In this document: one piece after another, positions 40,411-40,622 of the stretch
Numbering within the stretch: the stretch's first letter is position 1
Layout of the letters: the number at the start of each line of letters is the position of its first letter
Source: Escherichia coli
GTDB lineage: Bacteria; Pseudomonadota; Gammaproteobacteria; Enterobacterales; Enterobacteriaceae
Strand: one strand, 5' to 3'
NCBI RefSeq assembly: GCF_041248615.1
Contig: NZ_CP158426.1
DNA: 64,000 nt
Notes under the pieces: generated by a model
Told to the model about the DNA's origin: nothing
Seen by the model: the letters and a program-made list of their open reading frames with translations, nothing else
Databases searched by the model: none
Position numbers and translations under genes: made by a program

Positions 40411-40453
40411 AAATACAGGGCTGGAGTCATCCGGCCCTTTTTTCTGATATGAT

Positions 40454-40469
40454 ACGCAAACGTGTGCGT
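40454..40469. promoter_or_regulatory. PurR operator (pur box) for purC
   Basis: ACGCAAACGTGTGCGT, 15/16 match to pur-box consensus. Confidence 0.65.
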
Positions 40470-40511
40470 CGGCAGAAAAATGCGATTTTAGCGGTAATTC
40501 GCACAAAATTT

Positions 40512-40571
40512 GTTTGTCGGACGTAGGTCGGATAAGGCGTTCTTGCCGCATCTGACAAAACATCCGGCACA
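40512..40571. repeat. REP-like palindromic element in the purC upstream/leader region
   Basis: gtcggacgtaggtcggataaggcgttcttgccgcatctgacaaaacatccggcac resembles REP units. Confidence 0.5.
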
Positions 40572-40622
40572 CCAGACAGCAAAAGATTTTAAAACGTTAA
40601 TTCACACCCAGGAGTGATAAAG

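Follow-up and report, generated by a model that had tools for sequence, protein, structure and literature searches.

In the pur regulon of E. coli, PurR together with its corepressor, hypoxanthine or guanine, binds to operators known as pur boxes, and several of these operators overlap the -35 region of the promoter. Regulation of purine genes can also be exerted within the leader, as exemplified by the purine riboswitches of the Firmicutes. REP elements, in turn, have been found elsewhere to act as partial Rho-dependent terminators and as blocks to decay (bioRxiv 10.64898/2026.03.23.713779). One such element, REP181, is listed in the class 'Tandem' at 2,597,674-2,597,719 (K-12 v3), between bamC and purC (bioRxiv 10.64898/2026.03.23.713779, supplementary file 2).

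Here we describe the bamC-purC intergenic spacer of an E. coli sequence in which a PurR operator and REP181 both precede purC. Both of these elements are already known and named. They had been documented in a PurR ChIP-chip table (PMC3159470) and in the REP181 listing respectively, which went unrecognised in an earlier note on this DNA. Correct annotation is the main value of the analysis, as the PurR operator at purC belongs to the textbook knowledge of the pur regulon and the REP has been catalogued. Evolution provides a modest addition: a REP-bearing insertion of ~100 nt appears to have entered the leader of this core biosynthetic gene in the Escherichia lineage, and has been fixed there since.

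Genomic context of the purC leader

On the evidence of its open reading frames (ORFs) and of RefSeq annotation, the window (the whole stretch of DNA analysed, 64 kb in length) is the dapA-bamC-purC-ypfJ segment of E. coli. The genes are encoded on the plus strand: dapA (38463-39359) and bamC (39373-40410), both assigned from ORFs and from RefSeq records (K-12 and the strain that matches best), are followed by purC, with its ATG at 40623-40625 and its stop at 41336, and, further downstream in the gene order, by ypfJ and tmcA, which like purC were assigned from ORFs and RefSeq annotation. The region studied is the intergenic spacer between bamC and purC. The earlier note had ended this region at 40622, which is the last base of the leader, the purC ATG beginning at 40623. 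A Shine-Dalgarno (SD) sequence, AGGAG, is located on the plus strand at 40610-40614, and positions 40610-40625 are invariant in the alignments.

Use of positions 40380-40660 as a query returned one E. coli chromosome with 100% identity, and of 5,426 complete E. coli genomes almost every one matched at 95-99%, with K-12 at 96.4%. For K-12 and the best match alike, RefSeq annotates only CDS features over 50 kb and no repeat_region of any kind, so that it speaks neither for nor against a REP annotation. We consider it very likely that the bamC-purC spacer of the window is the canonical purC control region of E. coli, a judgement that is made jointly with the view, developed below, that the REP within it is a tolerated passenger.

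The PurR operator and the purC promoter

The PurR operator, ACGCAAACGTGTGCGT, occupies positions 40454-40469 and agrees with the consensus ACGCAAACGTTTGCGT at 15 of 16 positions, forming an imperfect 16-bp palindrome with a central CG and no strand of its own. It is the sole match to ACGCAAACGTTTGCGT with one mismatch or fewer in the 64 kb, with 0.00 expected from 100 shuffles. The near-consensus operator that the earlier note placed at these positions is exact; the accompanying distance of about 150 bp upstream of purC is acceptable, though slightly loose, as the box extends from 169 to 154 nt before the ATG. In K-12, PurR ChIP-chip identified the same purC site, given on the opposite strand as ACGCACACGTTTGCGT at 2,595,794-2,595,809 (PMC3159470). 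Occupancy of the site by PurR is strongly adenine-dependent, with a log2 enrichment at purC of 2.08 in the presence of adenine versus 1.52 in its absence (PMC3159470).

All 16 positions of the pur box are invariant in 20 enterobacterial sequences representing around 14 genera, including Escherichia, Citrobacter, Enterobacter, Leclercia, Kluyvera and Siccibacter. An upstream scan of purC loci revealed a single-base exception in Shimwellia, where the box lies 88 nt before the ATG. No close pur box was found within 450 nt upstream of purC (at least five mismatches) at 17 loci, including those of Mangrovibacter, Cedecea neteri, Pectobacterium, Photorhabdus and Yersinia, which suggests that purC in such genera has a different gene context or is subject to different regulation. 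Within the window, a second pur box, AAGCAAACGTTTGCGA, is present at 17093-17108 when up to three mismatches to the consensus are allowed. Read on the other strand it is TCGCAAACGTTTGCTT, which the PurR ChIP-chip study lists as the operator of purM-purN (PMC3159470), and by synteny with K-12 it falls in the upp-purM spacer. A further pur-box-like sequence with three mismatches, ACGCGCGCGTTTGCGT, is located at 19977-19992, in or near hda by coordinate arithmetic; it is absent from the published list of PurR sites and may be a chance match.

The purC transcription start site (TSS) was mapped by Kim et al. 2012 to 2,595,803 (K-12 v2) on the minus strand, giving a 5' UTR of 163 nt (PMC3415461, supplementary file 2), and the upstream sequence listed for this TSS ends ...GATATGATACGCAAA (PMC3415461). 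It is the sole purC TSS in that table, and there is no other between ypfJ and bamC (PMC3415461). When the coordinate of this published map is transferred via the operator coordinates of the PurR ChIP-chip study (PMC3159470), the TSS falls at position 40460 on the plus strand of the window. This is the seventh base of the pur box, and the operator extends from -6 to +10 relative to the start. The purC TSS derives from one high-throughput data set; as to a second source, PMC2760140, SMRT-Cappable-seq and Romero et al. 2014 yielded no purC entry.

Reading of the sequence, with the geometry set by the mapped TSS, reveals an extended -10 element, TGaTATGAT, at 40445-40453 on the plus strand. The TATGAT hexamer (40448-40453) occupies -12 to -7, the TG is at -15/-14, and the TSS lies 7 nt past the extended -10. 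This element is invariant in nine Escherichia sequences and identical in Citrobacter, Pseudocitrobacter and Pluralibacter. A generic sigma-70 scan detected no promoter in 40300-40700, the purC promoter having been missed because its -35 is poor. The weak -35 sits inside the hairpin of the bamC intrinsic terminator, which the terminator scan placed on the plus strand at 40417-40446 and which consists of the stem-loop AGGGCTGGAGTCATCCGGCCCT followed by a T-run that leads straight into the TG-extended -10. The terminator has a 9-bp stem at 40417-40438, and hairpin and T-run are both conserved in 20 enterobacterial sequences. The location of the operator on the TSS of an extended -10 promoter that is itself embedded in the tail of the bamC terminator is a modestly new observation. 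In E. coli 7CC (NZ_CM137006.1, locus 1763-2686) a copy of IS200C is inserted at ~40438, between the bamC terminator stem and the extended -10, splitting off the weak -35 and leaving the pur box and leader intact.

Transcription starts at 40460 from the extended -10 promoter just downstream of the bamC terminator, and in the mechanism that we propose PurR bound from -6 to +10 would block the start site, repressing purC under conditions of abundant purines. We infer this from the position of the operator and from established PurR biology; because the operator spans -6 to +10, occlusion of the start site is the straightforward mechanism of repression. A text search of the E. coli literature on the purC promoter and REP181 found nothing relevant, and the only related match concerned Salmonella, where a Tn10d insertion upstream of purC lowers purC expression.

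REP181 within the purC leader

The earlier note had drawn attention to a REP-like palindrome at 40512-40571, and this proves to be a true REP. Its core, the Y-type palindromic unit TGTCAGATGCGGCAAGAACGCCTTATCCGACCTAC, is located on the minus strand at 40523-40557 and was recognised by consensus match, pattern scan and alignment. Over this interval the minus strand agrees at 30 of 35 positions, including the CTAC/GTAG end, with TGCCGGATGCGGCGTGAACGCCTTATCCGGCCTAC, which we take to be the Y-type REP consensus and which was cross-checked against two other REPs and by pattern statistics; the K-12 allele agrees at 32 of 35. A 30-nt REP pattern has its sole match in the window at the purC leader, with 0 expected by chance, and the element aligns with two other REPs of the same window. 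When 55 nt spanning the REP are used as a query, E. coli genomes contain a median of 21 matching places each, or 109,717 altogether. The Rfam family naRNA4, which is derived from REP325, gives a weak match at 40526-40570 (28.2 bits, E = 0.004, against a gathering score of 59.5). The catalogue coordinates of REP181 correspond to 40522-40567 of the window, and the element is extragenic, within the bamC-purC spacer. REPs are also present elsewhere in the window. An inverted, BIME-like pair lies at 45177-45248 downstream of tmcA, with a Z-type unit on the minus strand and a Y-type unit on the plus strand, and another REP, GCCGGATGCGACGCTTGCCGCGTCTTATCCGGCCGAC, is found on the minus strand at ~20190-20229, which by position is REP182, between yfgD and hda.

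REP181 is transcribed within the 163-nt purC leader, because the TSS at 40460 lies upstream of it, and it occupies about +64 to +98 of the purC transcript. The earlier note had likewise placed the REP inside a 5' leader and had offered mapping of the transcription start as the check, with a start downstream of the REP as the outcome that would count against it; the published TSS (PMC3415461) is upstream of the REP and within the pur box. The leader carries REP181 singly and in inverse orientation, the mRNA containing the complement of the REP.

A two-tier RNA hairpin (dG -26.8 kcal/mol) is predicted by ViennaRNA on the plus strand at 40512-40572, a span which fits that of the palindrome first reported. 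In the predicted folds the REP forms an inner stem-loop with an internal mismatch bubble (GUCGGAU-AA-GGCG-loop-UGCC-GC-AUCUGAC), and an outer stem of 7 bp is predicted to pair 40515-40521 (GUCGGAC-type) with 40563-40569 (UCCGGCA), the sequence of this stem being REP-stem-like. The hairpin is situated ~52 nt from the 5' end of the transcript.

Other identities for this structure were considered and rejected. Only one complete REP is present, which excludes a BIME or REPIN; plus-strand alignment to REP consensi is weak (score of 16 or less) and the outer-stem flanks are fragments of only 7-8 nt. A riboswitch or attenuator was discounted on the grounds that there is no Rfam match at gathering score and no U-tract, and that the structure is missing from other genera. 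No riboswitch or leader RNA family reached the Rfam gathering score, and matches besides naRNA4 had E values of at least 2. A larger mobile MITE was set aside since the non-REP half of the insertion is single-copy in every genome.

Distribution and origin of the leader insertion

One genome per species was scanned with PurC, yielding 80 loci. In E. coli and E. albertii the pur box starts 168-169 nt before the ATG. The identical 16-bp box is found only 65-68 nt before the ATG in 12 genomes, among them those of Citrobacter, Enterobacter, Leclercia, Pseudocitrobacter, Phytobacter, a Pluralibacter MAG and Cedecea sulfonylureivorans, and the distance is 75-130 nt in five genomes, namely those of Pluralibacter gergoviae, Escherichia sp. 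ESNIH1, Pseudescherichia vulneris, Siccibacter and Kluyvera. Alignment across the genera reveals a series of conserved blocks, comprising the terminator with its T-run, the pur box, which is invariant, the SD-ATG region and, in many genera, the -10. An extra block of ~101-103 nt appears only in Escherichia, between ...TAATTCGCAC and CCAGGAG, and consists of ~80 nt of Escherichia-specific inserted sequence (40505-40584, plus strand, as defined by the cross-genus alignment) together with one copy of a duplicated segment. The upstream copy of this ancestral segment, GCGATTTTAGCGGTAATTCGCAC (40482-40504, plus strand), was recognised as a direct repeat and runs collinear with the leader of other genera, which is single-copy; the downstream, SD-proximal copy, AAGATTTTAAAACGTTAATTCACAC (40583-40607, plus strand), was assigned as a direct repeat and by alignment. 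The imperfect copies that bound the insertion, GATTTTAGCGGTAATTCGCAC at 40484-40504 and GATTTTAAAACGTTAATTCACAC at 40585-40607, have a 13-nt core at 85% identity. Since the downstream copy ends in 13 nt that the Citrobacter leader shares without a difference, the ancestral ribosome-binding context appears to have been preserved through the flanking duplication.

Kluyvera genomosp. 1 contains an unrelated insertion of ~60 nt at the point of the purC leader where Escherichia carries the REP insertion, about 60-120 nt ahead of purC, and several other genera have 7-20 extra nt at this position. On sequence comparison, this point in the leader evidently tolerates insertions. The comparative data suggest that a ~103-bp insertion at the insertion-tolerant position brought the REP into an ancestor shared by E. 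coli and E. albertii, with probable duplication of a ~23-nt ancestral segment around it, such that the ancestral SD-proximal sequence would still adjoin the ribosome-binding site (RBS). The insertion can be dated only to before the split between E. coli and E. albertii, because Salmonella and E. fergusonii are not among the 80 loci. That the REP is probably part of a genus-specific ~103-bp insertion with a duplicated leader segment on both sides is the other modestly new aspect of this locus.

The earlier note had proposed a comparison across E. coli strains, and in this comparison the REP part of the leader is present in 5425 of 5426 genomes, although the particular REP allele of the window occurs in only about 9% of E. 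coli records. Variation is unevenly distributed along the leader. Among seven diverse E. coli alleles, variable sites are lacking in the promoter/operator (0/30) and in the SD-ATG region (0/18), and number 6/55 in the REP part, 4/35 in the upstream repeat copy and 1/48 to the right of the REP. A single-copy stretch of 52 nt (40556-40607) is 100% identical in 5184 of the 5426 E. coli records (95.5%), and not even E. coli and E. albertii differ in the 65 nt that lead from 40559 to the ATG, a stretch which takes in the non-REP right half of the insertion. Within the stem, the window differs from K-12 by two C-to-T changes that give G-U pairs in the sense RNA. Stem-breaking changes with weaker hairpins are found in SCPM-O-B-8794 (-20.4 kcal/mol) and E. 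albertii (-17.6 kcal/mol). The hairpin can be folded in every allele (-17.6 to -30.1 kcal/mol), and 93.9% of cells are paired in the hairpin across nine Escherichia sequences. There are zero compensatory (double-sided) changes in the hairpin among these nine sequences, with no excess over a shuffled control.

Consequences for purC expression

Most likely, the REP is a tolerated passenger that has become fixed and has at most a modest effect on purC expression. RNA folding suggests that it would form a stable, self-contained hairpin, leave the RBS accessible and allow transcription to continue, and it is because of these three predicted properties that we favour the passenger interpretation. 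The predicted probability that the SD sequence is unpaired is 0.52 with the insertion and 0.51 after deletion of 40505-40607 in silico, and the natural short leaders of other genera have similar predicted SD accessibility. The leader as a whole folds modestly better than shuffles (z = -2.0). No U-run follows the REP hairpin on the sense strand; the sequence that does follow, AAAACAUCC, starts with AAAA, and because of this the hairpin is not expected to serve as an intrinsic terminator in the sense direction. The only intrinsic terminator found in a scan of the plus strand of the region is that of bamC at 40417-40438. Unrelated insertions of other genera at the same leader spot are a further part of the evidence that the REP is a passenger. 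The identities of the two elements and the leader location given in the earlier note are borne out, but the additional proposal that the REP could influence mRNA stability or translation is unsupported by computation, as SD accessibility is the same, compensatory changes and a U-run are lacking, and the REP part is the more polymorphic.

Retention of the insertion in essentially all E. coli and in E. albertii, together with the invariant 65 nt, could reflect function. REP181 may be a functional cis-acting element of the purC mRNA, either protecting it from RNases or acting as a pause site or partial Rho-dependent attenuator, and so provide tuning specific to Escherichia. The REP is transcribed from the upstream TSS, its hairpin is predicted to be stable in E. 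coli alleles (-26 to -30 kcal/mol), its fixation extends to 5425/5426 genomes and to E. albertii, and the leader from 40560 to 40609 is C-rich and G-poor (15 C versus 6 G), resembling a Rho loading site. REP325, moreover, attenuates downstream transcription and blocks decay (bioRxiv 10.64898/2026.03.23.713779), but Rho dependence was not detectable for REP325 fragments of 2-4 hairpins (bioRxiv 10.64898/2026.03.23.713779). We nevertheless regard a cis-acting role as unlikely: there are zero compensatory changes and some lineages have stem-breaking substitutions, polymorphism is higher in the REP part than to its right, the hairpin lacks a following U-tract, the insertion leaves predicted RBS accessibility as it was, and the hairpin is located at a distance from the 5' end rather than at it. 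Among the entries listed in the supplements of the eLife E. coli 3'-end map there is also no 3' end in the purC 5' UTR. Co-option of the REP181 insertion as a module for the post-transcriptional control of purC is rather improbable. In the form of this proposal that we consider, likewise with little expectation that it is correct, the hairpin and the invariant, C-rich and G-poor 50 nt would set the half-life of the mRNA or provide conditional Rho-dependent attenuation. If co-option were true, Escherichia would control purC at a second level, and its relatives with leaders of ~60 nt would do without it.

The REP might alternatively serve the neighbouring genes, as a read-through barrier or 3' stabiliser for dapA-bamC, or as a Rho-dependent stop for antisense transcription from purC. 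Tandem genes flank around 40% of E. coli REPs, and in these pairs expression is biased towards the upstream gene (bioRxiv 10.64898/2026.03.23.713779). An in vitro Rho-binding peak is reported at K-12 2597592-2597725 on the plus strand, antisense to the purC 5' UTR (bioRxiv 10.64898/2026.03.23.713779). This peak, which is seen with and without NusG, corresponds to 40516-40649 of the window and overlaps REP181 by 45 nt, and a terminator-like site is present on the minus strand at 40578-40561. However, bamC already possesses a strong intrinsic terminator (9-bp stem and T-run) some 85 nt before the REP, the Rho-binding peak comes from in vitro data only and no antisense transcript is seen, and we judge a role on behalf of the neighbours to be quite improbable. 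It is more improbable by far that the REP lies outside the purC mRNA, with a promoter downstream of it such as CAGACA-17-GTTAAT (40573-40601) and a pur box that acts at a distance. A weak sigma-70-like pair, each hexamer matching at 4/6 positions, can be picked out by eye at 40573-40578 and 40596-40601, but this reading is already disfavoured by the sole listed purC TSS, which is at 40460 (PMC3415461), and by the lack of any scan site in 40300-40700. In genera without the insertion the box is only 65-68 nt from the ATG, too close for such a promoter to fit in between, and repression by PurR would not be accounted for by a site situated 147 nt upstream of the start. With the insertion fixed and the ancestral ribosome-binding context apparently preserved by the flanking duplication, the locus offers a clean natural case for the question of whether a single REP in a 5' UTR, rather than in the usual 3' UTR, has any effect on expression.

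Comparison with known regulatory systems

The purC site is of the same kind as the other operators bound by PurR, a member of the LacI family, in the E. coli pur regulon, and like them it is found at the promoter of a purine biosynthesis gene. In contrast to the pur operators that overlap the -35 region, it covers the transcription start itself (-6 to +10). The leader attenuators and riboswitches of purine genes have a structured 5' UTR in common with purC, but the purC leader lacks a U-tract and shows no covariation.

REP181 has the hallmarks of the Y-type REP family, being a 35-nt imperfect palindrome with a GTAG-side tail and a GATG-side head that belongs to a dispersed, extragenic repeat and is located between tandem genes. 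It departs from a typical REP in several respects: it is an element of a 5' UTR and not of a 3' UTR, lying past the TSS of the next gene, it possesses an extra outer stem, it is somewhat degenerate (30/35 in this sequence), and it is a single REP and not a BIME or a REPIN pair. REP325/naRNA4 (yjdM-yjdN) belongs to the same repeat family and is also located between tandem genes, but forms an array of 12 hairpins, compared with the single hairpin of REP181.
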